Positions 8,218-38,400 of a stretch of 41,786 nt of DNA are shown piece after piece. The notes under the pieces were generated by a model. The model saw only the letters and a program-made list of their open reading frames with translations. It ran no database searches and was not told the DNA's origin. This stretch comes from an uncultured Alphaproteobacteria bacterium (GTDB lineage: Bacteria > Pseudomonadota > Alphaproteobacteria > Caulobacterales > Aquidulcibacteraceae). The stretch lies in the NCBI GenBank assembly GCA_937967725.1, contig CALBSY010000298.1, forward strand, positions 1 to 41,786, given 5' to 3'. Both the position numbers and the translations under genes were made by a program. Position 1 is the stretch's first letter. Every line of letters starts with the position of its first letter.

Positions 8218-8259
8218 AATAATTTGCGTCAACCAATTGTTAAGGAGTGGTCGATTGGA

Positions 8260-8955
8260 TTACTCGGTGACGAAGAGGCGCGCGGGGCGATTGCGCATGC
8301 GCTGATCGCCTATCACCACGCCGATGATTCGCTGATCCTCGTTCGCAACAACAAGCGGACGGGACGCCGGGACGGTCGGATCAGTCGAATGAAAGAAGAG
8401 CATGCCGGCGCCCAGCTCAGCGCAGACGACTTCAACCATCCCGTTCTTGGTGCGCGTGACAATTACGTGGTCACCAATGCGCGCGTCGGTTGAATCTAAA
8501 GGACAAACGATAAGGTAGCTGTCAGGACCGTAGTGCTTGTTCATGGACCCATCCCGCAAGTGGAGCGCGAACAACGCCGCCCCTTCGTAGCCTGGGGGAG
8601 GGGCCACTTTTATGGGTTCTGCGACGGGTTTGGTCTGGGCGCCCATTGATGCCGCCCCCTCTCTCCACACGCCGATCTCAGCGTAACCTACCAATGGAAC
8701 ATTGGTTACTGCTACCTTGTCTAGTTGTACTGTCGAATTATCCACAGCCTCAGCACCGCGCCCCTCAATCAGCCATTCGACTGTCGTCCCGAGCACAAGG
8801 GCTAGGCGGCGAGCGTTCGTTTCGGTCATGCTGCGTTTGCGGCCCTTGAGTAGGTCGCGCAGGAATGTGGGAGCGCGCCCAATCCGTTTGGACGCCTCCG
8901 CCGCCGTGAGGTTCATGGCCTCCAGGCGCTGCCTAACTCGTTCCCCTAGACTCAT
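8260..8955 (-). CDS. cI: CI-like repressor (XRE HTH plus S24-like C-terminal domain)
   Basis: MSLGERVRQRLEAMNLTAAEASKRIG...LGTTVEWL; LFALHLRDGSM; divergent from the cro-like gene. Confidence 0.9.
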   Translation of the reverse strand: MSLGERVRQRLEAMNLTAAEASKRIGRAPTFLRDLLKGRKRSMTETNARRLALVLGTTVEWLIEGRGAEAVDNSTVQLDKVAVTNVPLVGYAEIGVWREGAASMGAQTKPVAEPIKVAPPPGYEGAALFALHLRDGSMNKHYGPDSYLIVCPLDSTDARIGDHVIVTRTKNGMVEVVCAELGAGMLFFHSTDPTVPASRPLVVANEDQRIIGVVIGDQRMRNRPARLFVTE

Positions 8956-8993
8956 TGGGCGCCACACTACCACTGTGTGTCCTAACGGTCGGG

Positions 8994-9034
8994 CGGCATG
9001 TTTGCCTTGACGCCGCTGGCAAATATGCCATTTT
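8994..9034 (+). promoter_or_regulatory. PR-like promoter (TTGACG 9007-9012, CATTTT 9029-9034) with OR operators at 8994-9007 (degenerate) and 9017-9030
   Basis: Read directly; 16-nt spacer containing the operator. Confidence 0.7.
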
Positions 9035-9041
9035 AGGCGGC

Positions 9042-9296
9042 ATGGAAGAAAGCGTTGCCGATCTTGTCGCGCGGGCGCGCGCCTATGCCAAGGACGCTGG
9101 CCTCTCAGAGCAGACAGTCTCCGCAAAGCTGTTCGGCTCAGGCCATGCGCTGGATCAAATTTCGGCGGGAAAACGATCACTTACCTTTCGGGTGTTCAAC
9201 CGGGCCAGCGCCGAATTGCGCGTCATGGAGCGCAAGCTTGATGAGGCCAAGAAGGACAGGCGCGACGACAAGGCCAATAAGGTCGAGGTCGCGTAA
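9042..9296 (+). CDS. cro: Cro-like DNA-binding protein
   Basis: Position opposite cI; GLSEQTVSAKLFGSGHALDQISAGKRSLT HTH-like segment. Confidence 0.75.
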   Translation: MEESVADLVARARAYAKDAGLSEQTVSAKLFGSGHALDQISAGKRSLTFRVFNRASAELRVMERKLDEAKKDRRDDKANKVEVA

Positions 9297-9817
9297 TGGT
9301 GCGCGGCAACAACAGGGTAGGCCGGCTGATCCAGGCCACGATCAAGGTCGACCGGCGCGGATGCTGGATTTGGCAGGGCGGCAAGTTTGGCTCCGGGTAC
9401 GGCTGCCTCGTCATGGGCGGGAAGCAGTACGGGGCGCACCGCGCTTCCTACGAGGCTTTCGTTGGCCCGATCCCCGCCGGGATGCTCGTTTGCCACACCT
9501 GCGACGTTCCGGCGTGCGTGAACCCTAGCCACCTGTTCGCGGGCACTTACCGCGACAACGCGCAGGACATGATCCGCAAGGGGCGCCAGCGTCGCGGGCG
9601 GATTGGGCCGCTTTGGGTTGACCCGACTAGTTGCTCCTTCGTCAAGCTAACGTGGAACGATGTGCATGAAATCCGCGCATCGTCAGAGTCTCACCGCGCG
9701 CTTGCTGCGCGATTTCAGGTTCACATTAAAACCATTCGTCGCGTTCGCGCCGGTCGCACTTGGAAGCCACGAAACGCGAATAGCCCCCATTCCGATTTAG
9801 GGGAGGGGCGCGCGTGA
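9296..9817 (+). CDS. HNH endonuclease (homing-type) with C-terminal HTH
   Basis: GCWIWQG, GYG, AHRASY, VCHTCDVPACVNPSHL, DNAQDMIRKGR. Confidence 0.92.
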   Translation: MVRGNNRVGRLIQATIKVDRRGCWIWQGGKFGSGYGCLVMGGKQYGAHRASYEAFVGPIPAGMLVCHTCDVPACVNPSHLFAGTYRDNAQDMIRKGRQRRGRIGPLWVDPTSCSFVKLTWNDVHEIRASSESHRALAARFQVHIKTIRRVRAGRTWKPRNANSPHSDLGEGRA

Positions 9818-10131
9818 AGCCCGAACTCATCCGCGCGGCTGAGATGGTGCGCAAAGGCGCTTCCTACGGTGAAGCCGCCAAGGCGCTTGGGCTCACGCGC
9901 AGCCAAGTGGCCGGGGCTTGCACGCGCGCTGGCGTGCGGACGGGGCGGCCGAACGGGCGCGTCGGCAACGGCGCCGCCGTAGTCGCTCTGTACCTGGAGG
10001 GTGTGCCTGTCGCTGAGATCGCGCGGCGTTGCGGGCTTTCTAGCTGCACCGGCATTTGGCGCTACCTGCAGCGCGCTGGCGTCAAGTCGAACCGATACAA
10101 GCGCCGCTCAAGCGTGGAGATCTCCCCATGA
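9814..10131 (+). CDS. Double-HTH DNA-binding protein
   Basis: GASYGEAAKALGLTRSQVAG and GVPVAEIARRCG. Confidence 0.75.
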   Translation: MKPELIRAAEMVRKGASYGEAAKALGLTRSQVAGACTRAGVRTGRPNGRVGNGAAVVALYLEGVPVAEIARRCGLSSCTGIWRYLQRAGVKSNRYKRRSSVEISP

Positions 10132-10576: not shown

Positions 10577-10914
10577 GGAAAAAGAACATCCCCTGGGACA
10601 GTGTTCTCGAAAACGCTTTGCGCGACGGGCTCTACGCCGCTGAGGTCGCGCGCCTTGTGGGTGTGGCGCCATCAACCGTGCATGACGCCTGCGAGCGCCG
10701 AGGGATCACCCTCGCCAAAAGCATAAGGGGCAGGGGCGCAAAACTCAACGCCGTGATGCTTGAGCGATTCCGCGCCGCGGCTATCGCCGGCACGCGCGCC
10801 AACGCCTTCTGCCTGCAGAACGACATTTCCTACGGCTCTCTCAAGCGGCTCGAGCGCATGCACGGATTCAAGCTGCGCCGCGACCGCGCCCAAACCGTGG
10901 AGCGCTCAGCATGA
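10573..10914 (+). CDS. HTH DNA-binding protein
   Basis: GLYAAEVARLVGVAPSTVHDACERRGI; GTGA overlap. Confidence 0.7.
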   Translation: MRKKNIPWDSVLENALRDGLYAAEVARLVGVAPSTVHDACERRGITLAKSIRGRGAKLNAVMLERFRAAAIAGTRANAFCLQNDISYGSLKRLERMHGFKLRRDRAQTVERSA

Positions 10915-11192
10915 GTTGGACACCCGAACGCATCGCCAAGCTCAGACAGATGTGGGAGGCCGGCTATTCGGACCTGCAGATCGCCAAGGCGCTCGGCGGA
11001 TTCCGTCATTGCAAGGATGGCGGGCGCAACGCTGTCGCCGGCAAAGCCCACCGCCTGGGCCTGCCAAGCAAGCTCGATCCCTCCAAGCCCCACCGCTGGA
11101 CCTTCAGCAGCGACAAGCGCCGCCAGAACGCCGCGCGCACGCGCGCGCCCTGGAAACCAGGCGACCCCAAACCCGATGGAGCGCAGGCATGA
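10911..11192 (+). CDS. Short GcrA-like protein (N-terminal HTH only)
   Basis: MSWTPERIAKLRQMWEAGYSDLQIAKALGG...RNAVAGKAHRLGL. Confidence 0.85.
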   Translation: MSWTPERIAKLRQMWEAGYSDLQIAKALGGFRHCKDGGRNAVAGKAHRLGLPSKLDPSKPHRWTFSSDKRRQNAARTRAPWKPGDPKPDGAQA

Positions 11193-15138: not shown

Positions 15139-15317
15139 GCGGCGACGGGCTCGGGATGGATCGCGAAGCGTTCGAGGAGCGCATGCGGCTGTGGACCCCG
15201 CTCAAGGCCGCGCTGATGGCTAAGCTTGGGGCGTTGGGGGCCGCGCGCTGGCTTGAGTACGCAGCGCGCCAGATACGGCGCGAGCATAACCTACCGGCTG
15301 AGGAGAGACGCCCATGA
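15135..15317 (+). CDS. Hypothetical protein
   Basis: ATGA overlaps at both ends. Confidence 0.6.
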   Translation: MSGDGLGMDREAFEERMRLWTPLKAALMAKLGALGAARWLEYAARQIRREHNLPAEERRP

Positions 15318-15790
15318 GCGACTGGAACCCCGAATACCTTGAGTTCGCGCGCAGGCTCTACACGATCCACGGCCTGAGCGCGGGGCAGATTTCGCAAAAG
15401 CTGGCGGAGCTGGGCTTCAACGTATCTCGCTCGGCTGTGATCGGGAAGCTCACGCGCGCCGGCGTCATGGGCAATGTGGACGCGCACACAAAGCGCGAGC
15501 GCTGGCGTCAGACCACCGCGCACGCCAATCACCGGAGGCCCGCGACGAAGAAAGCGATCGCCCAACGCTCCGGGCCTCTGCTGGTGGCCGCGCCGGTCAA
15601 AACCGGAGCCCCAAAGCGCGGGCCTAACTCGATCCGGTTTCTGGACCGCTCCCACTACCAGTGCGCCATGTTCTGCGAAGGGGAGGAGGGAAGCGAGGGA
15701 TATGTCTGCGGCGAGCCTGCGGTCAAAAGCTCATGGTGCGCGCGCTGCCTCCGCATCGTCGCTGATCCGGTGCAGAAGCGGGTGGCTTGA
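15314..15790 (+). CDS. gcrA: Full-length GcrA-like transcription regulator
   Basis: W...GLSAGQIS...VSRSAVIGKLTR N-domain plus QCAMF...VCGEP...WCARC C-domain. Confidence 0.8.
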   Translation: MSDWNPEYLEFARRLYTIHGLSAGQISQKLAELGFNVSRSAVIGKLTRAGVMGNVDAHTKRERWRQTTAHANHRRPATKKAIAQRSGPLLVAAPVKTGAPKRGPNSIRFLDRSHYQCAMFCEGEEGSEGYVCGEPAVKSSWCARCLRIVADPVQKRVA

Positions 15791-15799
15791 GCACTTGGC

Positions 15800-15830
15800 T
15801 GAATCTCCCGTTAACCGGTTCGCTTAAACT
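15800..15830 (+). promoter_or_regulatory. Candidate CtrA-dependent promoter: TGAA-N7-TTAACC with overlapping GANTC and -10-like TAAACT
   Basis: One mismatch to TTAA-N7-TTAAC; located about 25-40 nt upstream of ATG 15840. Confidence 0.45.
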
Positions 15831-15839
15831 CTCGCGCCT

Positions 15840-16694
15840 ATGCAAGCCCTCGCTGAAAACCCGCGCGCCGTGATCGGCCACAACCAGGCGGACGATTTCG
15901 ATTTCATCTCCGCGCGCATGATCGAGCGCGGCGCGCGCATCATCCAATGGGTGTGGCCTCAGCTTGACGATGTGCTGGCCAAGCGCAAGGGCGGGATCAC
16001 GCTGGGCGCGCGCCATGTGCTGTTCTACTGCCTGCGCGATGTGGTTCCCCAGGCGGTGCTGGCCGACTTCGCCGGGCTCAACCGCAAGACTGCGGGGGAG
16101 GGCGCGCAACGCCCGGCCGCTTGGGCCGAAGAGGACGAATGGTTCGCGGAGCACTTGGAGCGCGTGCGCCAGCTCGTGGTGGGCTACGCCCATTTGGATG
16201 AGCAAGCCTTTGCCGAGCGCCTGGTTGAGCTCGTGGACACAGATCCATACCGGCGACGGCTCGAGCAGCAGCGCAAGGACCACGAGATGGCGGCACAGGA
16301 GGCAGAGCGCGCCGCCGCGGAATTGGAGGAGCGCAAAAGGATACGGGGGCTGGCCTCGCTCAAGCGCTCGCTCAAAGGCAACCCGCGCGCGGACGCCATC
16401 ATGGCCGAGCAGTATGGAGCCAGGCACATCGCCAAGACGCTCTCACGGGAGGCGCTGGGCGTGCTCGCCACCATCCACGCCAAGGAAGCAAAGCACCTCC
16501 GCCAGCCCACCAGCGCCTATTGCGAGATGGGTTTGCGCGAGTGCCTGAGGCTCGGGATCGCGCGCAACGCTGAGCCGCACCTGTCCAAATCCACCGATCC
16601 GATCATAGGCCCAACCCAGTTCGGAGCCCGCGTTTACGCCGAAGCGTTGGGGCTTGAGCTTGTCGTGAAGCCCAAGCGAAACGCCGCTTCCTGA
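15840..16694 (+). CDS. Putative transcription regulator with DnaA C-terminal-like HTH, coiled coil and possible C-terminal winged helix
   Basis: ARHVLFYCLR...LADFAGLNRKTAGEG...EDEWFAEHLERV resembles DnaA domain IV; last gene before the late region. Confidence 0.6.
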   Translation: MQALAENPRAVIGHNQADDFDFISARMIERGARIIQWVWPQLDDVLAKRKGGITLGARHVLFYCLRDVVPQAVLADFAGLNRKTAGEGAQRPAAWAEEDEWFAEHLERVRQLVVGYAHLDEQAFAERLVELVDTDPYRRRLEQQRKDHEMAAQEAERAAAELEERKRIRGLASLKRSLKGNPRADAIMAEQYGARHIAKTLSREALGVLATIHAKEAKHLRQPTSAYCEMGLRECLRLGIARNAEPHLSKSTDPIIGPTQFGARVYAEALGLELVVKPKRNAAS

Positions 16695-16725
16695 ACCCCT
16701 CAGCCAACCCCCGTTCTGGTATTAT
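16692..16725 (+). promoter_or_regulatory. Late-promoter motif 1 (TGAACCCCTC-N18-TATTAT)
   Basis: Member of a six-copy family. Confidence 0.65.
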
Positions 16726-16843
16726 TCTATGGTCAGAGCCGACATCGCCCGACGTTGACGCGCTCGCACACAAAGTTGGTATTTGGAACGGAGTGGCCAG
16801 GAATGTTCGGGCGGTTGCGGACTGATTGGGTGCGGGGTGTGTG

Positions 16844-17122: not shown

Positions 17123-17334
17123 CCGCCCCACGCTATTACCCCCGCTACCACTCCAAAGCCCAAAACTTCCAAGGCGACCTCTATGTCGTGATCGACTCCC
17201 GCATCAACGAAGAGGTCTCTTCCCCTAAGCCCTATCACGACGCGAACAATGAAGCCGGCCAGAGAAACGAGGGCACATTCGGCGCACTCTCCATGGCTGA
17301 CTGGGTTCCGGGGATGAACTTGCCCGCGCCATGA
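17119..17334 (+). CDS. Hypothetical protein
   Basis: ATGA overlap; stop lies in motif 2. Confidence 0.6.
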   Translation: MTAPRYYPRYHSKAQNFQGDLYVVIDSRINEEVSSPKPYHDANNEAGQRNEGTFGALSMADWVPGMNLPAP

Positions 17335-17365
17335 ACCCCGCGCATTTGATTTCACGCCTGATAAT
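17332..17365 (+). promoter_or_regulatory. Late-promoter motif 2 (TGAACCCCGC-N18-GATAAT) upstream of terS
   Basis: Read directly. Confidence 0.75.
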
Positions 17366-17869: not shown

Positions 17870-19163
17870 GGTCTTTGCGCCGCTGCTTGAGCCGTCTCGG
17901 TACAAGGGCGCGCATGGAGGCCGGGGCTCGGGCAAGTCCCATTTTTTTGCCGAACTCATGCTTGAGCGCGCGCTGATGAAGCCGGGGTTTCGCGGGGTGT
18001 GTATCCGCGAAGTGCAAAAGACCCTGGCCCAATCCAACAAGAAGCTGCTCGAGGACAAGATCGCAGAGCACGGGCTGGCGCGCGAGGGCTTCAAGCCCTG
18101 GAACGACTGCATCGAGACCCCGGGCGATGGGATCATCCTGTTTCAGGGGATGCAGAACCACACCGCGGAGTCGATCAAGTCGCTGGAAGGGATCGACGTG
18201 GCCGACATCGAGGAGGCCCAGACCCTCAGCGATCACAGCCTCACGCTGCTGCGCCCGACCATTCGCGCGCCGGGCTCGGAGATATGGGGGCGCTGGAACC
18301 CGCGCCGCAAGAAAGACCCCATCGATGTGTTCCTGCGCCAGAACCGGCCCGGCAACGCCATCGTGGTGCAAGCCAATTGGCGCGACAACCCGTGGTTCCC
18401 GCCAGAGCTGAACGAAGAACGTCTGCTGGATCTGGAGAAGTACCCCGATCGCTACGAGCACGTCTGGGAGGGCGGCTACGTCACCGTGTTCGAGGGGGCC
18501 TATTACGCCAAGTGGATCGCCAAGGCCAAATCCGAGGGGCGCATCACCGAGATTTCGCGCGACAGCCTGGCGGAGGTGCGCGCCTATTTCGACCTCGGCG
18601 GCTCCGGGGCTGTGGCGGACGCAACCGCTATCTGGATCGTGCAATTCGTCGGCATGAAGATCCTGATCCTCGACTACATCGAGGGGGTGGGCCAGGTGCT
18701 CGGCTATTACGCCGGACAATTGCGGGCGCGCGGCTGGCAGGATGCGCTGTGCGTTCTGCCTCACGACGCCAGCCAGGTTCACGCCGACAATCCCACCGGG
18801 GTCAATTACGCCGCGCAGATGAAGGCGGCCGGGTTTCGCACCCGCACCGTTCCCAATGCGGGGAAGGGGGCCGCCATGCTGCGCATCGAGGCCGGCCGGC
18901 GCTGGTTCGACCGCATGTATTTCAACACCACCAAGGGCGCCGATGGGGTGGACGCAACCGAGGCGGGCCGTGAAGCGCTCGGCGCCTATCACGAGAAGCG
19001 CTCGACCGATGATCGGGACGTAGGTCTTGGCCCCAACCATGACTGGTCATCGCACGGGGCCGATGCGTTCGGCCTGATGGCGCTCGATTACCGGGAGCCG
19101 AGCGATCACATTCGCAATGGCAGGCCCAGCCATTATCGCACCGGCGGGGCGATCTTGGGCTGA
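17841..19163 (+). CDS. terL: Terminase large subunit
   Basis: Walker A GGRGSGKS, CIREVQ, IEEAQ, WNP, FDLG, C-terminal HDWSSHGADAF. Confidence 0.97.
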   Translation: MSSLTLQTPRVFAPLLEPSRYKGAHGGRGSGKSHFFAELMLERALMKPGFRGVCIREVQKTLAQSNKKLLEDKIAEHGLAREGFKPWNDCIETPGDGIILFQGMQNHTAESIKSLEGIDVADIEEAQTLSDHSLTLLRPTIRAPGSEIWGRWNPRRKKDPIDVFLRQNRPGNAIVVQANWRDNPWFPPELNEERLLDLEKYPDRYEHVWEGGYVTVFEGAYYAKWIAKAKSEGRITEISRDSLAEVRAYFDLGGSGAVADATAIWIVQFVGMKILILDYIEGVGQVLGYYAGQLRARGWQDALCVLPHDASQVHADNPTGVNYAAQMKAAGFRTRTVPNAGKGAAMLRIEAGRRWFDRMYFNTTKGADGVDATEAGREALGAYHEKRSTDDRDVGLGPNHDWSSHGADAFGLMALDYREPSDHIRNGRPSHYRTGGAILG

Positions 19164-19194
19164 ACCCCGCGCAAGTCCTTGGCGGGATTATCCT
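19161..19194 (+). promoter_or_regulatory. Late-promoter motif 3 (TGAACCCCGC-N18-TATCCT)
   Basis: Read directly. Confidence 0.72.
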
Positions 19195-19200
19195 GACCCC

Positions 19201-19413
19201 ATGTCACTGTCCGGTCTGTTTGCGCTCTCGAAAACCAAGAAGCCCAAGGCGCCGGCGCAATCGCCGCCGCCTCCGCCCCCGCCCACGATCGATGAGGCGG
19301 CGATGAATGAGGAAGCGTCACGCAAATATCGCCGCCGCCGCGGCATCCGCGCCAACATCACCGGCGCGGGCGGGGAAACCGCCTCCGTCGCCTCCAAGCA
19401 ACTCCTGGGGTAA
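19201..19413 (+). CDS. Small Pro-rich virion-associated protein preceding the portal gene
   Basis: PPPPPPP...RRRRGIRANI...KQLLG C-terminus typical of pre-portal genes in this phage group. Confidence 0.8.
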   Translation: MSLSGLFALSKTKKPKAPAQSPPPPPPPTIDEAAMNEEASRKYRRRRGIRANITGAGGETASVASKQLLG

Positions 19414-21124: not shown

Positions 21125-21543
21125 AGTTTGTAATTCTCGTTCTGTTTGTAATCGCCGCTTTGGCCTTCGTTTCCCGTGAAGCGTGGCGGCGTCTCAGCCC
21201 GCCCCGCAAGCGCGCCTTCATGGGCGCTGTGAGCCGTTCGGCGGCGCTGGTGCGCAACCAGGCCATCGCCATGCGCCAGCGCCTCATGCGCAAGCAGAGC
21301 GCGTTCAGGGCGCTGTTCCTCGGTGATGACGGCGATCTCTCCCCGCAGGGCCAGATCGCGCTCTCCCACCTCTCGCGCTTTTGTTACGCCTTCGCCACAA
21401 CCGCGCATGGCAAGGCAGACCGCGACGAGCTGATGAGACGGGAAGGGCGCCGGCAAGTCTGGATCGAGGTGATGCGCTTGCTTTCGCTTGATCCGGTGGA
21501 TGCGCTCAACGCGGCCAAGCTGGATGAGCCTGTGCTGGGCTGA
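21121..21543 (+). CDS. Bbp19-like protein with hydrophobic N-terminus
   Basis: GQIALSHLSRFC...REGRRQVWIEV; located between portal and scaffold. Confidence 0.75.
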   Translation: MKFVILVLFVIAALAFVSREAWRRLSPPRKRAFMGAVSRSAALVRNQAIAMRQRLMRKQSAFRALFLGDDGDLSPQGQIALSHLSRFCYAFATTAHGKADRDELMRREGRRQVWIEVMRLLSLDPVDALNAAKLDEPVLG

Positions 21544-21573
21544 ACCCCGCCCGCGCGAATAACCCCCGACACT
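21541..21573 (+). promoter_or_regulatory. Late-promoter motif 4 (TGAACCCCGC-N17-GACACT) upstream of the scaffold gene
   Basis: Box exact; -10 weaker and one base closer. Confidence 0.6.
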
Positions 21574-22505: not shown

Positions 22506-22699
22506 TCCAAGGTCTTTCCAAGCGGGCGCTGCTGCGCCTTGAACTCATCCGCATCGTGGATTCCGATGGCCGCGTGGTCTCGGCCAACCTCCAGCGCGTG
22601 TACGAATACGAGAAAGCGTTTGAGGCCCTGCTCGAGGACGAGCCGCAGGCCGAGGCTTCAGCCCCGACGCCGGCCAAGGTCGCCGCCAAGAAGGGCTGA
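22502..22699 (+). CDS. Small hypothetical protein
   Basis: ATGA overlap; stop lies in motif 5. Confidence 0.6.
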   Translation: MIQGLSKRALLRLELIRIVDSDGRVVSANLQRVYEYEKAFEALLEDEPQAEASAPTPAKVAAKKG

Positions 22700-22730
22700 A
22701 CCCCGCACGCTTAAAACCGCGCTTCATAAT
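22697..22730 (+). promoter_or_regulatory. Late-promoter motif 5 (TGAACCCCGC-N18-CATAAT) upstream of the capsid gene
   Basis: Read directly. Confidence 0.78.
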
Positions 22731-25332: not shown

Positions 25333-25640
25333 TGCGTAGCCAATACAGCCACGTCTATTACGAGACCGTCGCCGCTTCCCAGACCGCGCAAGCGCTGGGG
25401 GCGGCCGGGGCCAAGGGCGACTACCTCGCCCAGATCGTCATCATCCCGGCGACGACTTCCCCTGGCGCGGTGTCGATCCTTGACGACGCCACCTCGATTT
25501 CGGTGTTCGCCGGCGGCGCGTCCAGCGTCACCGAGCTCAAGCCGATCGTGGTCACGCTTGGCCTCACCAGCAAGAACGGGGCGTGGAAAATCACCACAGG
25601 CGCCAACGTCTCCGTGATCGCCTGCGGGCAGTTTACCTGA
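25332..25640 (+). CDS. Small beta-rich virion protein (MRSQYSHV)
   Basis: TGATG coupling; stop lies in motif 6. Confidence 0.75.
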   Translation: MRSQYSHVYYETVAASQTAQALGAAGAKGDYLAQIVIIPATTSPGAVSILDDATSISVFAGGASSVTELKPIVVTLGLTSKNGAWKITTGANVSVIACGQFT

Positions 25641-25671
25641 ACCCCGCCTGAGGGTTGCGCGGCCTCATAAT
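25638..25671 (+). promoter_or_regulatory. Late-promoter motif 6 (TGAACCCCGC-N18-CATAAT) upstream of the tail genes
   Basis: Read directly. Confidence 0.78.
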
Positions 25672-25679
25672 TCAAGGCC

Positions 25680-26285
25680 ATGGCCTCCCAGACCTCGATT
25701 GCGAACCACTGCCTTGACCTCATAGGCGAGGACTCGATTTCCGACATCAACGACAGCGTTGATCGGGCCGAGAAGATCAGGAACGCCTGGGACGGCGAGC
25801 GCGATAGCGCGCTGCGCGCCCATTGGTGGAACTTCTCCATCGAGCGGGTGAGCCTGGCGGCTGATTCCGCTGCCCCTAACTGGGGCTTCGACAAACAATA
25901 CTCGCTGGACGCCGATGTCGTGCGGGTGATCCAGGTGGATCAATATTACCCCCCGGCGGTGCTCTCGGACCTCATCAACGCCGACACCTCGCTCTATCGC
26001 ATCGAGGGGCGCAAGATCCTCACCAATCTCACAGCCCCGCTCAAGGTGCGCTGGATCGTCAACTCGATCGACATAGGCGATTGGGATGCGTGCTTCGCTA
26101 AGGTGATGGCCTGCAATCTGGCGGACAGGCTCTCCACCAAACTGACGGGATCGGAGGCCATCAAGGCGCGCATCAAGGCCGAGAAGCGCGACGCGCTGCG
26201 CGAGGCCCGCCGCGCCAACGCCATCGAGAACCCGCCCACGCTCGCCAACGACGGCCGCTGGATGGCCAGCCGCTTCTCTGTGTGA
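25680..26285 (+). CDS. Tail adaptor / tail tubular protein A (T7 gp11-like)
   Basis: IANHCLDLIGEDSI, LRAHWWNFSIERVSL, YRIEGRKILTN, EARRANAIE. Confidence 0.88.
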   Translation: MASQTSIANHCLDLIGEDSISDINDSVDRAEKIRNAWDGERDSALRAHWWNFSIERVSLAADSAAPNWGFDKQYSLDADVVRVIQVDQYYPPAVLSDLINADTSLYRIEGRKILTNLTAPLKVRWIVNSIDIGDWDACFAKVMACNLADRLSTKLTGSEAIKARIKAEKRDALREARRANAIENPPTLANDGRWMASRFSV

Positions 26286-29430: not shown

Positions 29431-30062
29431 TGGGCTGGGGCAATATCATCGGCCAGGGCATCTCCAATCGGCAACAGGCGATTGGAGAGTACGGGCAAGA
29501 GCGCGGCAACGCGCTCATCTACAAGCAGAACGCCCAGACCTCGCGCCAGGAAGCGAAGCGGGTTCGCCAGGAAACCAATCTGGCGGAAGAGGCAACGCGA
29601 CGCCAGATCAGGCAGGATCTCGGCGCGGCGTTCGCCGCGGCGGCGCAATCCGGTACGCGCGGCGGAGGCGGGACCACCATAGACGCCCAGCTTAAGCAAT
29701 CGGCGACGCTTGCCGAGCTCGACGCGCTCAATATCCGCTATGGCGGGGAGCTTGATGCGCAGGCCCACGAAACCGACGCGCGCAATTTCGACTATGAGGC
29801 CGAGGCCGCTTGGGAGCGGGCCAAGTACGCCAAGCAGCGGGTGACGTTCGGATCGGTCGGCACCATCCTTGCCGGGGCCGCCTCCTACGGGACCACGGTG
29901 CAGAACCGGCGCGCGCGCGAGGCGGAGCGCGACGCGCGCAAGCCGGGCTACACGTATCAGGGTATTGGCTACAACGTGTCCAAACCAAAACCCCGCGGGC
30001 GCACCCCTGTCATTGAGATTGGCGATCCAGTCGGCGTGAGCGCCGGGAAAGGGCGCAAATAG
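29430..30062 (+). CDS. Internal virion/ejection protein (gp14-like)
   Basis: Ala/Gln-rich helical protein, AAAAQSG, ELDALNIRYGG. Confidence 0.8.
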   Translation: MGWGNIIGQGISNRQQAIGEYGQERGNALIYKQNAQTSRQEAKRVRQETNLAEEATRRQIRQDLGAAFAAAAQSGTRGGGGTTIDAQLKQSATLAELDALNIRYGGELDAQAHETDARNFDYEAEAAWERAKYAKQRVTFGSVGTILAGAASYGTTVQNRRAREAERDARKPGYTYQGIGYNVSKPKPRGRTPVIEIGDPVGVSAGKGRK

Positions 30063-32438
30063 ATGGCCCGCGCACCCGGCATAGTCTCAATCCGCCAATA
30101 CAACCAGCAGAGCCGTCCTCAAGGGCGCGCGCGCCCCAAGGCCCCATTGGTCGAACAGCCCTTGGGCGAGGCCCACAACCTCATGGGCGATCTGGGCCAA
30201 GGGCTGCAGGCGGTCGGGGATTATTACGAGCACAAGGAAAACGTCGATCTGGCGGTGGAGCGTATCCGTCACGCTCGGGATGAGGACGATGCGCGGGCTT
30301 ATTCAGCCGCGGCTCTTGCCGACGCCACGGCGCGCTATGCCCAGCGCGCGCGCGAGATAGAGGCCGAGTCCCAGGACGGTTGGCGCGGGCTCACGGCCAA
30401 TTCGGATGCGGCGTTCAACGAGATCAATGCGGAGATCATCGGCGCCGCGCCGACCGAGGTTTCCAGAAACTTCGTCAGCCAGCACCTAGGCATCCTGCGC
30501 GCGCAAAGCATCGCCCGCCAGGCTGAGCGGGAAAACGATCTTCGCCGGAGCTGGCGCCGGGACACCATCGAAGCCAGCGCAACCGAGTGGGAGCGCATCC
30601 TTGTCACCGACCCCAGCCAATGGGCGCGCGCGCACGCGACATTGACGCAGACCATTGGGTCTATGACAGACATCACCGCCGATGATCGGCGCGATATGAC
30701 CGCGCGTGCGGCGGGCCGCATGGCCTACTTTGCCGTCGCCGGCATGGTCGAGGCCGACCCGCAAGCGGCGTTGCGCATGCTGCGCGGGGGCGTTGTGGAT
30801 GGCGATGCGGCGACCATCGGCCCGCAGATCGCCTCCATGTTCAACGCGACCATGACCTCTGGCCGGCGCACCGCCGAGCGCAATGCTGAGGTTGGGGGCG
30901 CGGCCAATTCGCTCCACCTCTCCGGCCGGGCGGCCGATATTTCAGTCCCGCCGCAATATCAGGGCATGGAGAGCGCGGCGATCGAAGCGGACGCGCGCCA
31001 GCGGCTCGAGGCGCAATTCCCAGGCATGCGCTTTACCGAAGTCATCTTCGAGGGCGACCATCTCCATGTCGGCTGGGAAGGGGGCGGGGAGGCGCAACGG
31101 CAGGAAGGCCCGGTGGCGCACCTCACGGCTGAGGATCATTTGCGCCTCATCAATGCGGCGCAGGCTGAGGTGAACCGCAGGGACAGCGAACAAAGGGCCA
31201 CGGCGCGCGATATTCTCAATGCGCAAACCCAATTGCTGCAACGCGACATAATCCCAAGCGAACCGCTTGACCCTGCGCTTGTGCAGTCGCTGTTCGGCGT
31301 GGACGTGGCCCAGGCCTACCTGGCCAATCTCGCCAGCGCAACGGCCAGCAATCAGTTGAGCAATCTGAGCATGGCGGATGTCGCGCAGGTGGCGGCGAGC
31401 GCCGTTTCTCCAGACCGAAGCGACACCGACAACCTTCTCACCCATGAATACCGGGAGGCAGCGGAACGCAATCTTCAGTCCCGCCGTGAGGATCCAGGCG
31501 GCTTCCTGCTGAACAATCGACGCATGCGCCACCCCGATTTCATGGGAAACCTTGGTGAAGCGGTGCGCAGCGGCGATTGGACAGCCATGCAGGGGGTGTT
31601 CCGTGATCGCGGGGCTGATGCGGTGGAGGCGCGCGCATCCGGCGCGGTCGAGCGCGCCGCCCCGCTGTCTCAGCCTGAGGCCCGAGCGCTGCGCTCGTGG
31701 CTTGATGGTCGCACGGCGCAAGAACGGTTGGCGTTCTTTTCGCAGGCCTCAGCGGCGATGAACCGCGAAGCCTACACGGCCATGATGACACAGATAGCGC
31801 CCGATGGCGGAGAGGTGCTGGCCTTTGCCGGCTTCGCCTATGGCGCTCCGATTGGCGGGCGCTTTGATGGGCCCACAGTTGCCCGCCGCTTGCTGGAGGG
31901 GGCCGAACTATTGCAGGGGCGGGACAGCGCAAGCGGCGAAGATCGCCAGCGTCGCGGGTCTGTCACGCTACCGAGCGTCGAGGATATGCGCCAGGAATGG
32001 CGCCGCCAGGTTGGAAGGCACGCCTATGCCGGGATGCCGGCGGACGTGGAAGAGCGGGCCTTTGGCGCGTTCAGGGCCTACTACGCTTCGCTTGCGAGGG
32101 AACGCGGCTTGACCAACACGACTGTTTCCATCGCGCTTGTGCGTGAGGCTGCAGCCGTTGCCAGCGGGGGCACCACCAATTGGAGTGGGCGCGAAACGCT
32201 GCTGCCGTGGGGGATGCAGGAGAGAGAGTTTGAAGCTGGCGTTCGCGCTGCCTTTGACCAAACCCCCGCGCTGCGCGGACGCAACCCGCGCTCCTTTGAC
32301 CTCACCGCCGTTGGCAATGGGGCTTACGCTGTGGAGGGGATGCGCCACCCAAACGGAAGCCCGGTGCAGATATTCATCAGGCCCAATAACCGGAAAACCT
32401 CGCCCAATTCCACAGTCGCCCCGCCGCGGGGGAACTGA
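30063..32438 (+). CDS. Internal virion/ejection protein (gp15-like) with M15-family peptidoglycan peptidase domain
   Basis: TSGRRTAERNAEVGGAANSLHLSGRAAD...EGDHLHVGW. Confidence 0.85.
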   Translation: MARAPGIVSIRQYNQQSRPQGRARPKAPLVEQPLGEAHNLMGDLGQGLQAVGDYYEHKENVDLAVERIRHARDEDDARAYSAAALADATARYAQRAREIEAESQDGWRGLTANSDAAFNEINAEIIGAAPTEVSRNFVSQHLGILRAQSIARQAERENDLRRSWRRDTIEASATEWERILVTDPSQWARAHATLTQTIGSMTDITADDRRDMTARAAGRMAYFAVAGMVEADPQAALRMLRGGVVDGDAATIGPQIASMFNATMTSGRRTAERNAEVGGAANSLHLSGRAADISVPPQYQGMESAAIEADARQRLEAQFPGMRFTEVIFEGDHLHVGWEGGGEAQRQEGPVAHLTAEDHLRLINAAQAEVNRRDSEQRATARDILNAQTQLLQRDIIPSEPLDPALVQSLFGVDVAQAYLANLASATASNQLSNLSMADVAQVAASAVSPDRSDTDNLLTHEYREAAERNLQSRREDPGGFLLNNRRMRHPDFMGNLGEAVRSGDWTAMQGVFRDRGADAVEARASGAVERAAPLSQPEARALRSWLDGRTAQERLAFFSQASAAMNREAYTAMMTQIAPDGGEVLAFAGFAYGAPIGGRFDGPTVARRLLEGAELLQGRDSASGEDRQRRGSVTLPSVEDMRQEWRRQVGRHAYAGMPADVEERAFGAFRAYYASLARERGLTNTTVSIALVREAAAVASGGTTNWSGRETLLPWGMQEREFEAGVRAAFDQTPALRGRNPRSFDLTAVGNGAYAVEGMRHPNGSPVQIFIRPNNRKTSPNSTVAPPRGN

Positions 32439-35400
32439 TGAGCGATTTCTTTGCGACAGGGCTGGACACAAACCAGGCGCTTCGGGATGCGGAGGCGCGC
32501 GAAGCGAGCCAGCCGGGGTTTTGGGGCAACCCGTTTAAGGGGGTAGGAGACGACATCGAGGCGGGCTTTGCCCGTGGGGGTGTTGGTCTAAACCGCCTTG
32601 CAATCCAAGCTGGTCGCTTTGCCGAGGATTTCGCGCGCGGCGTCACCGAACTTGACGACACCCCGTTCATCGAAGGCCAGCAGCGCCCCCGCGATAATTG
32701 GTGGGAGAACTTTTTCCGGTCCAATGAGGAATATTGGGCTGAGGAAATGCGGCGTAACGCGGTGGATCCCGCCACACGCTCGCAGGCCGCCAATCTGGTA
32801 GGTGGGCTTGCCAATGTGCTGACCACCTTTACGGCGACCACGCTGACGGCTGGGCCGCTGGGGCGGCTGTCTAATGTAGCCGGCGCCGGAGCGGCGGGCA
32901 CGGGCTTCGGACGCGAGACCCAAACCAGGCTCGAAAGCGAGGGCGTTCCTGCCGACCAGGCCCTTCAGGGCGGGGTTATTGAAGGCGGTTGGATGACCCT
33001 GATGGGCACGCTGCCGGTTTCGATTCCTGGCCGGCTCTGGCAGCGGGTCGCCTCTGGCGCGACGATCAATGCAGGCCTCGGCATGGGCATGCGCCGGTCG
33101 ATGGAGGATTACCTCAACAGCATCGATCGGCCCGACCTGGCCGAGCAATACCGCTGGCTTGATCCGCAGGCGACGACAGTTGATGTCCTATTCGGCGCGG
33201 TGTTTGGAGGCATGTTCGGGCGGCGCGGGGGCGCTGCCGCTGTTCCTGAGTTTGCGCCAGACGGCACGCCGGTAGAGCGCGCGCCCAGCGCTGCGCCTGT
33301 AGCTGAAGCCAAAGAATCCCCCATGGAGCGGGATCCGCTCACGCCAGAAGAGCATGTCGCGCTTACCGACCTGGGCGCTGCAGCTCTTATCGAGGCGGAT
33401 AACATTGCACGGGAAACAGCTTTCGGGATTCCTGAAAACCCGGAAAGCGCGCAATGGCAGCGTCGGTCTATCGAGCGCATGGAAGAGCAGATCGCGCGCG
33501 ATGAGCCGGTCGATCTTGGCCCTGTGCCGGAGGGGATTGGGTTCGTTCCGCTTCGGCCGGATGAATACGACGCCGTTGGTGTCGAGAATATCGCCGCTGA
33601 GATTGAAGCCGCCAGCGCAACGCTCGACGGCGCTGACCGTGTTTCCCTAGTCGATTGGGTTCGCCGGCAAGGGGAGGTGCGCGACGCGCGCGGGCGGGTG
33701 ATCCAGCGCGGCGGCATCCGCGACGATCGCGGCGATATTGCCGGCGGGGCCAGCGACGGACGCCAAGGCTTCGCCAGCCTCATCAGCCCGACCGGGCGCA
33801 CCATTGATGATCTCGTGGTCAAGGCCTGGGAGGATGGCTTTTTCCCAGATCATGCCTCACCGGAAACGATCACAGCCAATGACTTCATCCAGGCTGTTGA
33901 TCTGGATGCGCGTGAGCCGGGCTCCATCACCGCGGACGTGGGAGGGGCGCTGGATGTGGCCGACGCGCGCTCAATCCTTCGCTCTTACCGGGAGCGCGGG
34001 ATAGACACCAGCCTCAGGGGGCAAGCCCTCAGAGAGGCGGTGCGCCTGAGTACGTTTGACGGGCAATGGGATGCCGCGGTTCTCTCTTTTGCGGATGAGC
34101 TCGCCGCTCAAGGCTTCGGTGATGTGGCGCAGCGTATCCGCGAGATGCGCCAGGCCCGTGGTGATGCATCGGGCCCCGACGAAACCTTGTTCTCCATGGG
34201 CCCGAGCCGGCGGCGGGGGATGGATTCTTGGAGAGGGAATGAACGGTTCTATGATGACCGTTTGAATGACCAGGTGCGCAAGGGGCTGCGCGCGCCCATC
34301 GGGGATATGCTGTTCTCGCTGGGGCCGCGCCGCTGGCAAGCGGCCCTGCGCGATCCTGAGACCGGGGAAATCTACACCGGGGCCAACCATGGCGAAGCGC
34401 TCAACGCCGCCCCTGAGGCCCGCCATGACGCATTGCTGGCGGCCGAAGAGAACTCCGGCTTCCTTTCCAACGGAAAGTTTGTCAGCCGGGAGCAAGCGCT
34501 GGCTGAGATGAGCGATGCGCTGTTCTCCCTACGCAACCCGTTCTACTCCGCGGTTGAGCGCGTTGTCGCCAGCTCGAAAACCGCGCGCGCGCCCGGCGCT
34601 CAATGGTGGGCTACCATCTCCAAAGCCCAAGGGGTCAAGCGCGAGGAGCTTGAATGGATCGGGCTGGCGGATTGGCTTAAGGCTCAAGAGGGCTCCATCT
34701 CCAGAGAGGATGTCCTTGCCTTCGTTCAACAGAACGGGGTGAGGGTGGAAGAGACTGTGCTGGGGGGTGATGCGGTTGATCCGGCCCTGCAACAGCGGCT
34801 CTTGCCTTTGATTGAGGAGCGCGAGCGGCTGGAACGGTCACGCGACAACATGAGCGCCGGCCCGGAATGGGACCAAACCCGGGCGCGCATCCTTGCGCTC
34901 AGCGACGAAATCCTCCCGCTACAGCAACAGATCTCGGAGCAATCACGCGCGAACCAACCCAAATGGTCCCAATACACCCTCCCCGGAGGGGAGAACTATA
35001 GGGAGGTGCTGCTTAGGCTGCCGGAAAGCGAGCGCCCCGTAGCGCCGTGGGTGGCTCAAGAGAACCCGCGTTTCCCGGGAGACTTCGAGATTGAACGCAG
35101 AGCCACGGAAGGCTCTGCCGCAACCGGGGAAACGATCGGCGGCTATCGCTCGCTGGAGGAGGCGCAGGCGGCGGCTGCCAAGCGAAATGCATCCAATGTT
35201 AAGACCACGAACAATCCGAACGACTTCCGCTCCTCCCACTTCGACCAACCCAACATCCTCGCCCACGTCCGGTTTAACGAGCGCACGGATGCGCAAGGAA
35301 GGCGCACGCTGTTCATTGAGGAAGTGCAAAGCGATTGGCACCAACGGGGGCGGGAGCACGGCTACAAGGGCGGCGCCGACATTCAGGCCATCGAGGCTAA

Positions 35401-38400
35401 GTTGCGCGACGCGGGCATTGCGCAATCGGTCATTGACCTGCTTAAGCGGCAGGACAACGGCGTTCCGCCCGATGCCTATGTGAAAATCCTGGACACGCTG
35501 ACGCACCAAGAACTTACGCGGCTGCGCGCCGAAACGGGCACGCAATTGGCCCCCAACGCCCCCTTCAAGAACAACGCCTGGGCCTCGCTCGCCATGAAAC
35601 GGATGATCCGTTGGGCTAGTGAGAACGGGTTCGATCAGATCGCTTGGACGCGGGGGGAACATCAGATCAGCCGCTTCAATCTAAGTGAAGCGGTTGGCGA
35701 AAAGATGGACGCCAAAAAGATCAGCGACGATCGCTATCTGGTGCAGATGCGCAATGTTCGCGCGCGGGATATGCTGGCCCGCAATGGGCTGGGCGAAGCC
35801 CACAACGCCGACCAAGAGATCATCTTCATGTCGCGCCAGCAAATGCGCGAGGCGTTTGGCCCAGAAATCTCCAAGCGGATCATTGACGACACCGAAGACG
35901 GCAAGCGTATCCGGCTAAAGGGCGACGACCTCCGCGTCGGCGGCGAAGGCATGCGCGCCTTCTACGACCGCATCCTCCCAAATATAGCCAATGACCTTGG
36001 GAAGAAGTACGGGGCGAGGGTGGGTGAAGCGCAAATTCCTCTTCCGTCCAACGCCGCCGAAACGTCGGCCTACAAGCCGAGCGACTATCGCGTCGAAGAG
36101 CGCGATGGTGGCTGGATCGTTACGCAGGACCGTTCGCGCGCGCCTCACACCCCCGTTTTCGCAACAAAAGCTGAAGCGGAAGCGTTGCGTGACAAATACC
36201 GCGCGCAATTCAATCCGATTCCAGAAACCGTCCACTCCCTCCCCATCACCCCCGAAATGCGGGAAGCCGCTATGGAGGGGCAGGCGCTTTTTGCGCTGGG
36301 GGATGGGAGGGGGCGGTCCTCTGTCGAGGCTGTGCGCGCGGAGGCCGTTGCCGATCTCGGCGCGGATTGGTCCGCGCTCGAGCGCGCGAGCAACGCGGTG
36401 CTGGTCGAAAACGTATCGGACATTCCGCGCGATGGCTTCGCAGACATCCCGCGCAACGTGAAGGCGGTTCATTTCCGCAGCACCGGGCAGACCTATTTCG
36501 TGGCGGGAAATATCCGCCCGGGGGAAATGCGCGGCCTCATCCTGCATGAGATCGGCGTCCACCACGGCATGCCCAAGATGCTTGGTAAGCGCGGGTTTGC
36601 CGAGGTGCAGCGCCAGGTCGCGCGCATGGCGGATGAAGGTCATCCGGCCGTCGAGGAAGCCCGCTACTGGGCCGAGCGCTACAGTGCTCACGATGGCCAG
36701 GTGCCAGAGGAAACGGTCGCGTATCTGATCGAGAACCACGCAGACCTTCCCCTCGTCACCCGCATCCTCTCCCGCATCCGCCAGTGGCTCATCAAGACCT
36801 TTGGCTCCTCCTTTGGGATGCGCCTGACTGTGGATGACATTCGCGCGCTTGCGGTCACTTCCTTGCGCCGTGTGGCCGAGCAAGCCCGCCGCCAGAGCGC
36901 GGACATTACCCCGATAGATTCCCTGCTGTTCTCTCAAGGGGATGGTCCCGACGCGGGACCATCAGATGTGCGGCCGTTGCGCGACGCGACGAGTGCGTAT
37001 CGCACCACAGATACGCCGATCCCATCCAATGAAGTCGGGCAGGAGATCACGCCGCCGGGCGGCTGGGACAGCTACGGCGGCAACCTGATGTCCAAGCACA
37101 TGCTGCGGACGCTTGGCCCAGAGGGCGCGCTGCGCGAGGTGGAGAGCATTTTCGCGCAGCCCAATTTTCAGCGGCTGCGGGAGCGGGCAGGCGACTTCGG
37201 GGCGTGGGAAGCGGCGCGCCGCGACATCCACGCTGCACACCGTGATTTCGTGGCCCAACAGCGGCGCGCAAGCCTCTCAGTCGTTGGTCCTGACGGAGGC
37301 AGCGTAGGCGGGGTGATCGAACCGACCTCAATCACCGGCGCCGAGCTCAGCCCCTCGATCCGCACGGTCATTGACGACTTCTTCGGGGAGGGCGCGTCGG
37401 CGCGCGCGCTGGAGGATGAATCCGGCGACGGCATGATGGAACTGGCGGAGATCATGCTGGCGCGCGGGGAGACCGCCGAGCAGCAAGCCGCCGTTGCTTC
37501 TATGGAGGAATGGGCGCGCGCTCAACGCGCTCAGCCCGGCACGATGCGCAACGTCACCCCGGCTCGTGGGCCTAATGACGGCAGCGGTGGAGAGGGCCCG
37601 CTGTTCTCGTTCGGTGGACGCTTGGCGCGCACGGCCAACGATGACACCCTGCGCCTGGCGCGCTTGCTCGAGCGCGAGGGCAAGGACGAGTGGTTCATCT
37701 GGCACAACACCGGCTGGGCGCGCGGGGTGGACAAGCAATGGCGCTTTGAGATCCCCGATGAGGGCGCGGCCTTTGCCGTTCCCTGGAACACGCTGCGCCG
37801 CCGCAAGGGCGCGACCCCTCTACCCGAAGCGTTTGACCATCCCGCTCTCTTTGAAGCCTACCCGCAACTGCTCTCGGTCAAGGTGAAGATCGTTTCCGAG
37901 GAAGGCGTCGGCGGAACGTGGAGCCCCGAGGAGGGCGTCATTGAGCTTAGCCCGCACGGCGGCGCCGATACAGCGCGCCGCACGATGCTGCACGAAATCC
38001 AGCACGCGATCCAAGACATCGAGGGCTTCGCGCCCGGTACGCACTGGGATGAGGTTTCGCCGCAACGCGCGAAGGCCGCGCGCGAAGATGCCGTGCGCCG
38101 TATCCAGGGTTACAAATGGTTGAGCGAGAAAACGCGGACGGAACTGATCGCCGCCTTGGATGCTCGCCGCGAAGCCTACCGTCACGCCTCCGGCGAAGCT
38201 GAGGCGCGCGCTGTGGAGACGCGCGCCCACTTTGGCGACCTGAAAGCGATGCCCCCGGCCGAGGCGGCGCGCGAGGCTGTCATAAATCCAGCGATGCTCT
38301 GGAACCCGCGCCGCCGCAATTGGGAAGTTTTCCGCGGCGCCGCAAGTGAGCCGCCGCGTGGACAAAATCCCCCAAATGTGGTAAGAGGCAAGCGTGACCC

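Follow-up and report, generated by a model that had tools for sequence, protein, structure and literature searches.

Phage activators of late or middle genes such as Mu Mor/C, T4 MotA, P2 Ogr and RinA/Ltr act at or near the -35 position of their promoters. In the literature compared here, the only activators with a DnaA domain IV that have been characterised come from gene transfer agents (GTAs). GafY of the Caulobacter crescentus GTA (CCNA_01111, formerly HdaB) contacts domains 3-4 of sigma70 and binds many GTA promoters, and MEME did not yield a motif for it (PMC11150451). In the Rhodobacter capsulatus GTA, CtrA binds near the start site of gafA (rcc01865) and controls it, and a homologue is found in roseophage RDJL-phi1 (PMC6363796). 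For the lytic deferment described in phages, a defined target gene for the CtrA timing of development has been missing so far (PMC9437464).

The stretch of DNA analysed here, the window, is an entire contig of 41,786 nucleotides and part of a genome bin that is 75.55% complete; the phage-to-host assignment rests on binning. It is organised like a temperate phage of the lambdoid kind whose virion genes are those of a podovirus. The leftward genes encode NinB, an exonuclease, Erf and a CI-like repressor (8263-9180), and the rightward early genes encode an HTH protein, GcrA, DnaB, HNH, an O-like initiator and a second GcrA, followed by the open reading frame (ORF) at 15840-16694 and, 3' of it, the terminase, portal, capsid, tail and internal virion genes. 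Among the last, 32438-39880 encodes an internal virion protein of 2480 aa, in which the Pfam and PHROG scans recognise an LPD23 domain and endolysin-like segments, the latter by PHROG. No integrase was seen in the window, and the phage element is incomplete there because a contig of run X1 continues beyond the right end. The two GcrA genes, one short and one full length, match PF07750 with E 7.9e-12 and 1.8e-15. A first-pass annotation had described the ORF at 15840-16694 as the last gene before the late region, preceded by its own promoter-like gap, and had recognised no lambda-Q-like gene. These points were confirmed: a 49-bp gap separates gcrA (15314-15790) from the ORF, the holin-like/terminase block starts right after it with no other gene before the late region, and no Q-family match was found among the 29 and 36 ORFs scanned. 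The genes and predicted domains concerned are as follows.

10911-11192, rightward: second GcrA-family gene, short (93 aa; PF07750)
15314-15790, + strand: GcrA-family gene (PF07750), directly upstream of the candidate activator gene, not likely to encode the box reader
15840-16694, + strand: ORF of the candidate late activator (284 aa)
15915-16199, + strand: aa 26-120, predicted to have the fold of DnaA domain IV (against 3pvp: Z 12.0, rmsd 2.2 across 93 residues)
16200-16349, + strand: long helix (aa 121-170) in the secondary structure of the model
16407-16670, + strand: predicted winged-helix domain (aa 190-277; Z 8.4-7 to Rio2-N, TubR and MarR folds)

The 284-aa protein gave no match in Pfam, PHROG or NCBIfam and had no homologues in 50,697 GenBank phages, in 400 class-level genomes or, with the first profile, in GTDB; PDB sequence searches with both family profiles returned nothing relevant. 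A family profile seeded by six homologues (38-54% identity) found 47 representatives; nine plus five weak profile rows, which matched the N-terminal AENPRAxIGxN motif only, were dropped. That motif (AENPRAxIGHN, aa 5-15, window 15855-15884) also occurs in phage proteins without domain IV, namely unrelated proteins of L233, L235-L243 and L245-L249, and is perhaps a short interaction motif. The single-sequence fold was dropped (pLDDT 50.9, no structural match) and an AlphaFold2 model built on a 50-row alignment was used instead (pLDDT 92.9, pTM 0.70).

When the model was compared with 48,161 solved chains, the top four matches were all DnaA domain IV (Z 12.0 for 3pvp and 1l8q, 11.7 for 1j1v and 10.8 for 8btg), and the next match scored 8.4. 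DnaA also filled Foldseek ranks 1-9, with weak E-values (best 0.023), and profile-profile comparison by hhalign matched the family to DnaA with P 91.0. In 301 genomes, the family profile had 16 non-self matches: 14 DnaA C-termini, two of them Pfam-confirmed, one DnaA_C protein, and one kinase that is a false positive. Bac_DnaA_C (PF08299) was matched by two of the 50 family members (best E 1.5e-4); the window protein itself gave no match over the curated cut-off. Atlas searches with the 284-aa protein returned no DnaA cluster, and the Atlas feature search pointed to clusters of exonuclease fragments (<=0.90, few shared counts), which speaks against a DnaA-fold reading. The model nevertheless predicts the DnaA domain IV fold, so that both the DnaA-domain-IV-like segment and the possible second, winged-helix domain of the first-pass annotation are supported at the level of predicted structure. 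Of the HHpred/AlphaFold-Foldseek type of check that it had suggested, the DnaA domain IV and HTH fold were recovered; a Bac_DnaA_C match over the cut-off and GafA/GafY membership were not.

The DnaA signature RDH(T/S)TV reads LNRKTA in the window protein. K48-R49-K50 aligns with the basic loop of DnaA and N81-R82-K83-T84 of the recognition helix with its D-H-S/T-T recognition residues; given the DnaA-DNA contacts described in PMC9638019, a changed DNA specificity would be expected. In the model, the long helix is likely a coiled-coil linker or dimer arm. Short family forms (L244, L231 and L232) have a helical tail in place of the winged helix. The regulatory module to which this protein belongs is judged to be real, and it had no annotation until now.

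The promoters of the late region share a box with the core AACCCCGC, followed by a -10 hexamer 17-18 nt further 3'. Six late promoters and a possible weak seventh were located.

16694-16725, + strand: late promoter 1, AACCCCTC-N18-TATTAT, on the stop codon of ORF 15840-16694
17334-17365, + strand: late promoter 2, AACCCCGC-N18-GATAAT, before the terminase small subunit (ATG 17375)
19163-19194, + strand: late promoter 3, AACCCCGC-N18-TATCCT, ahead of the portal block, which opens with the ATG at 19201
21543-21573, + strand: late promoter 4, AACCCCGC-N17-GACACT, before a scaffold/protease-like gene
22699-22730, + strand: late promoter 5, AACCCCGC-N18-CATAAT, before the major capsid gene
25640-25671, + strand: late promoter 6, AACCCCGC-N18-CATAAT, ahead of the tail tubular gene, whose ATG is at 25680
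29989-30019, + strand: perhaps a seventh, weak box, AACCCCGC-N17-TGAGAT, ahead of the gene for an internal virion protein at 30063

The sequence TGAACCCCGC occurs in the window exactly five times (17332, 19161, 21541, 22697 and 25638), and at <=1 mismatch it has 11 matches versus 4.72 expected, a number reached by none of 100 shuffles. Each of the six boxes is on the sense strand and falls at a border between genes in the late region, and a matrix trained only on other phages ranks them 1-5 and 7 in the window; the seventh candidate (29987) ranks sixth and falls below the leave-one-out threshold. None of the six promoters has a canonical -35. If the -10 hexamer is taken at -12 to -7, the box would lie at about -38 to -31, and three of the six promoters would start <=3 nt from the next ATG (start predicted). 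It had been proposed that the stop codon of the activator gene is the start of the first late box. The overlap itself is present, the box on this stop codon being TGAACCCCTC with one mismatch; TGA as part of the box was rejected, since at each of the six window sites the TG ahead of the core is part of the stop codon that ends the ORF before it, and TG is found there in just 4 of 24 boxes of other phages.

Twelve further loci bear the gene (L002-L009, L231, L232, L234 and L244); they are kin, and G368 was counted together with L244, which has the same protein. The L244 homologue belongs to a Hyphomonadaceae bin. A leave-one-out scan of the window and 11 of these loci (L008, cut inside the gene, was left out) gave 30 boxes downstream of the gene on the sense strand in 81.5 kb, two upstream in 79.6 kb and none antisense, and 9 of the 12 loci have a box above threshold. 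The other three are L004 (354 bp of downstream DNA), L006 (1.2 kb) and L232, which has CAC variants only, at the expected places and with scores under threshold (13.9 and 11.4). The four loci found after the motif was fixed hold 13 downstream sense boxes, one upstream and none antisense. Among 80 terminase relatives without the gene, which served as controls, probably infect other hosts and extend 3 kb upstream of the terminase in only 42 cases, there were three scattered sense hits in 975 kb, and no control had two. The co-occurrence of gene and motif across phages, named earlier as a check, is thus seen in these sequences. A scan of IMG/VR for GAACCCCGC-N18-CAWAAT returned 94 single hits, none with two boxes per strand or with the gene in the flanks (80 long, 14 of 633 bp); such single boxes are read as chance, and one box alone means little.

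Two upstream boxes of the late type, at 7088 in L244 and at 5127 in L234, lie in the replication region, where feedback on replication genes is possible. Two of the short-form phages also hold the box variants AAGCCCAC, AACCCCAC, AGCCCCGC and AAGCCCGC (L232 3103 and 5808; L231 11365 and 13637), which offer material for residue-base covariation.

Because the short forms without the winged helix keep their boxes (six in L244, three in L231), domain IV is likely the part of the protein that reads the box. Portal, capsid, terminase and replication genes vary from one of these phages to another, and the gene keeps its place beside these differing neighbours; gene and boxes thus stay while their surroundings swap. 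This persistence speaks against the proposal that the box is read by phage GcrA, by the HTH protein at 9814-10131 or by a host regulator while the DnaA-domain-IV protein merely travels along. Such a reader is suggested by the GcrA homologues of the window, L002, L007, L231, L234 and L244 and by a weak match of the HTH gene to the late-activator family phrog_836 (E 0.0038), and also by the recognition helix, which varies while the box stays constant: L234 has H-R-D-T there and yet the same box, so that a shared host factor could conceivably be the reader. Phage GcrA was rejected as the reader because four of the 80 control loci carry GcrA and hold no box, and the boxes lack GANTC. A host regulator is further disfavoured by the host bin, where boxes occur at background level only (0.13 per 10 kb). 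We consider any of these other readers very unlikely.

A replication factor, either an origin binder or an HdaB-like modulator of DnaA inactivation, would also fit a DnaA fold encoded downstream of replication genes, and GafY was first named HdaB for its effects on replication, before it was reassigned to GTA transcription (PMC9632790). No AAA+ domain was found in the scan or in the model of the 284-aa protein, however, and the phage encodes an O-like initiator and a DnaB of its own, with primase-helicases in its relatives. The boxes are single, on the sense strand and phased to -10 hexamers, unlike origin iterons. A replication role is therefore regarded as highly improbable. The 284-aa protein is instead read as a late-gene activator, an assignment in which, on the sequence evidence, we place high confidence.

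The first late promoter is followed by a further conserved element.

16726-16830, + strand: hairpin leader, about 100 nt long, that separates late promoter 1 from the holin-like ORF and is conserved in 10 loci

The leader is present in the window, L002 (10015-10112), L003, L005, L007, L009, L231, L232, L234 and L244, with a conserved GCTC...GGAG core and folding z of -0.2 to -4.3; its consensus pairing is supported in part only. It has no Rfam match, no match under E 0.3 in the 80 control loci, and six weak matches of the leader model in 148 family genomes with no box or gene adjoining. The leader is a candidate structured RNA controlling lysis timing. Together with the Q-like position of the activator gene, it would also suit a protein that works at a step later than initiation: a Q- or GafZ-like antiterminator that is loaded at late promoter 1 and targets the hairpin leader. 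The protein has no similarity to GafZ/DUF6456, no terminator was found after promoter 1, and six separate box promoters without a canonical -35 fit activation better, so that antitermination seems most improbable.

Upstream of the activator gene, the first-pass annotation had read TGAA-N7-TTAACC, an overlapping GAATC and TAAACT. All three are there: TGAA-TCTCCCG-TTAACC at 15800-15816, GAATC at 15801-15805 and TAAACT at 15825-15830.

15800-15814, + strand: predicted CtrA-type site, TGAA-N7-TTAA, which begins 40 nt ahead of the ATG
15822-15830, + strand: putative -10 region GCTTAAACT, read from the sequence, with a presumed start site

By itself, the CtrA-like site is not beyond chance in the window (2 matches at <=1 mismatch versus 1.11 expected; 32 of 100 shuffles reach 2), and its significance comes from its conserved position in homologues. 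A TTAA-N7-TTAA-like site begins at -39/-40 from the start codon in 12/12 homologue loci, with <=2 mismatches in 11 of them (1, 1, 3, 1, 2, 1, 2 and 2 in the first eight loci; 2, 1, 1 and 2 in the later four). This count omits L006, which has no upstream DNA; the L003 start was chosen from three ATGs, and L231 and L232 share upstream sequence. As background, 12 of 2998 host ORF starts, crudely called, reach <=2 mismatches at this position. In the first eight loci, the 60 upstream bases agree pairwise at just 16-29 positions, and the CtrA-type signal peaks at the -39/-40 offset, with 51 of 64 half-site bases. In Caulobacter, a full CtrA site at -39 activates ctrA P2, and full sites usually begin near -35 and activate in predivisional cells (PMC4287350). 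No Shine-Dalgarno-like word precedes the activator gene in any of the 12 loci, with which a leaderless or nearly leaderless message would fit.

The earlier proposal had named host CtrA and/or phage GcrA as the switch of this gene. A role for CtrA is supported by the site in 12/12 loci; control by GANTC methylation was rejected and GcrA with it, since GANTC is present in 2 of the 12 promoters and not conserved. The ctrA gene itself was found in 33 of 40 congeneric genomes and in 21/21 of the near-complete ones; it was not found in the host bin, which is 75.55% complete. CtrA input to the activator promoter is, from its sequence and position, probable, a little less firmly so than the activator role of the protein, and the two together can still be held likely.

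No terminator was found between gcrA and the activator gene, so that early read-through may also express the activator. In its strongest form, this would make the protein a late activator that is expressed in the lytic cycle mostly by read-through of the early operon, with CtrA only tuning it, repressing it or mattering in the lysogen. The gene is co-oriented with the cro-replication-gcrA genes, and CtrA is an activator at some promoters of phages and a repressor at others (PMC9437464). Repressing CtrA sites, however, are half-sites that cover the -10 (PMC4287350), and the CtrA-type site here is held at the activating distance of -39/-40 in every locus with the spacer free. We regard this alternative as unlikely, and an activating input by CtrA remains the preferred reading.

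A second CtrA-like site, TCAA-N7-TTAA, lies at 8229-8243, just past the stop codon of cI, and two leftward promoters of sigma70-like type (8209 and 8195) are downstream of it; through it CtrA may touch the early switch too. Another contig of the bin (L256, G000:C176) encodes a CtrA-like DNA-binding domain without a receiver (NF045991 positions 147-220, E 7e-14), which resembles the truncated CtrA of roseophage RDJL-phi1 (PMC6363796).

In the mechanism proposed, host CtrA would activate the activator promoter from the site 39-40 bases before the start codon, and the activator would then bind AACCCCGC ahead of six promoters of the virion and lysis block. There the box would overlap the position of the -35 hexamer, and domain IV, once bound, would bring the sigma70 holoenzyme of the host to good -10 elements, by analogy with GafY and its contact with sigma70 domains 3-4 (PMC11150451), with the winged helix as an accessory. 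Predicting a complex between aa 5-140 and regions 3-4 of the host's sigma70 gave no answer (score 0.00), which weighs neither for nor against such a contact. The CtrA input would time or boost virion assembly to cells with active CtrA. That CtrA is a strict gate of the activator is doubtful, and we propose only tentatively that the two-step switch from CtrA through the DnaA-domain-IV activator to the AACCCCGC promoters strictly licenses virion assembly to CtrA-active cells. If this holds, it would provide a single-gene mechanism for lytic deferment in self-replicating temperate phages. One conserved CtrA-type site on one regulator makes CtrA timing directly testable. The family also offers a sharply defined box of 8 bp, of which nature supplies 30 examples, a naturally truncated form that points to the reading domain, a compact activator-promoter pair for Caulobacterales, and a suggested function for many unstudied phage 'DnaA C-terminal' proteins.

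Among described systems, such stand-alone 'DnaA C-terminal' proteins (BFVD) have the same domain; there are at least 50 matches, the best at E 1.2e-3, mostly of 100-200 aa. A further protein, of 356 aa with DUF3102 and a GafY-like DnaA_C domain, is found in another Caulobacterales genome (L011, G267). No paper on the protein family or the box was found in a search of the openly accessible literature.

With the phage activators Mu Mor/C, T4 MotA, P2 Ogr and RinA/Ltr, the system shares a good -10 without a standard -35, an activator box and a gene at the early/late border, and it differs in fold, the window protein being without a family match. The phages phiCbK, vB_BsubS-Delta and Cp1R7A-A1, described as CtrA-regulated, likewise have CtrA sites in a phage intergenic gap. 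In those phages, many CtrA sites cluster in terminal repeats or gap regions (PMC9437464), whereas here a temperate podovirus of lambdoid type has one site, placed on a single regulator gene.

GafY shares the DnaA domain IV fold with the window protein (PMC9632790, PMC11150451), and in the described GTA, too, one regulator serves many virion-gene promoters with a sigma70-type -10 and a poor -35. A profile match to 10 GafY-like proteins, taken by DUF6456 synteny and not including the Caulobacter sequence, gave P 87.8 and E 3.3e-6 over 86 columns; the family is no closer to them than to DnaA (P 87.8 vs 91.0). Identity to GafY is 17%, and the helix reads N-R-K-T here versus D-R-S/T-T in GafY. The window protein has an extra helix and a winged helix and lacks a gafZ partner: DUF6456 was absent among the ORFs neighbouring the activator gene, the host bin's DUF6456 gene lies on another contig, and hhalign against 12 GafZ-like proteins gave P 0.2. 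The site of GafY lies far upstream, at -123 to -113, and its action depends on IHF (PMC11150451), whereas the box here overlaps the -35 position. In Caulobacter, gafYZ is repressed by RogA and the Caulobacter GTA is not CtrA-controlled; the window system is moreover a phage with its own replication genes. The GafA/GafY-like logic that had been suggested may therefore apply to the way the protein works and not to its membership, since it has no GafZ/DUF6456, is no closer to GafY than to DnaA and differs in site position.

GafA has an N-terminal DnaA-like domain, as does the window protein, and activates packaging, structural and lysis genes (PMC6363796, PMC9638019); a CtrA-type site at the activator's own promoter, predicted in all 12 loci here, is a further likeness. 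The C-terminus of the window protein is a winged helix and not a DUF6456/sigma-like domain, nothing points to omega binding by the window protein, and in the window phage a defined 8-bp box is repeated at each late operon. If the proposed circuit is correct, it would be the free-living phage counterpart of the CtrA-GafA circuit of gene transfer agents, with another C-terminal domain.
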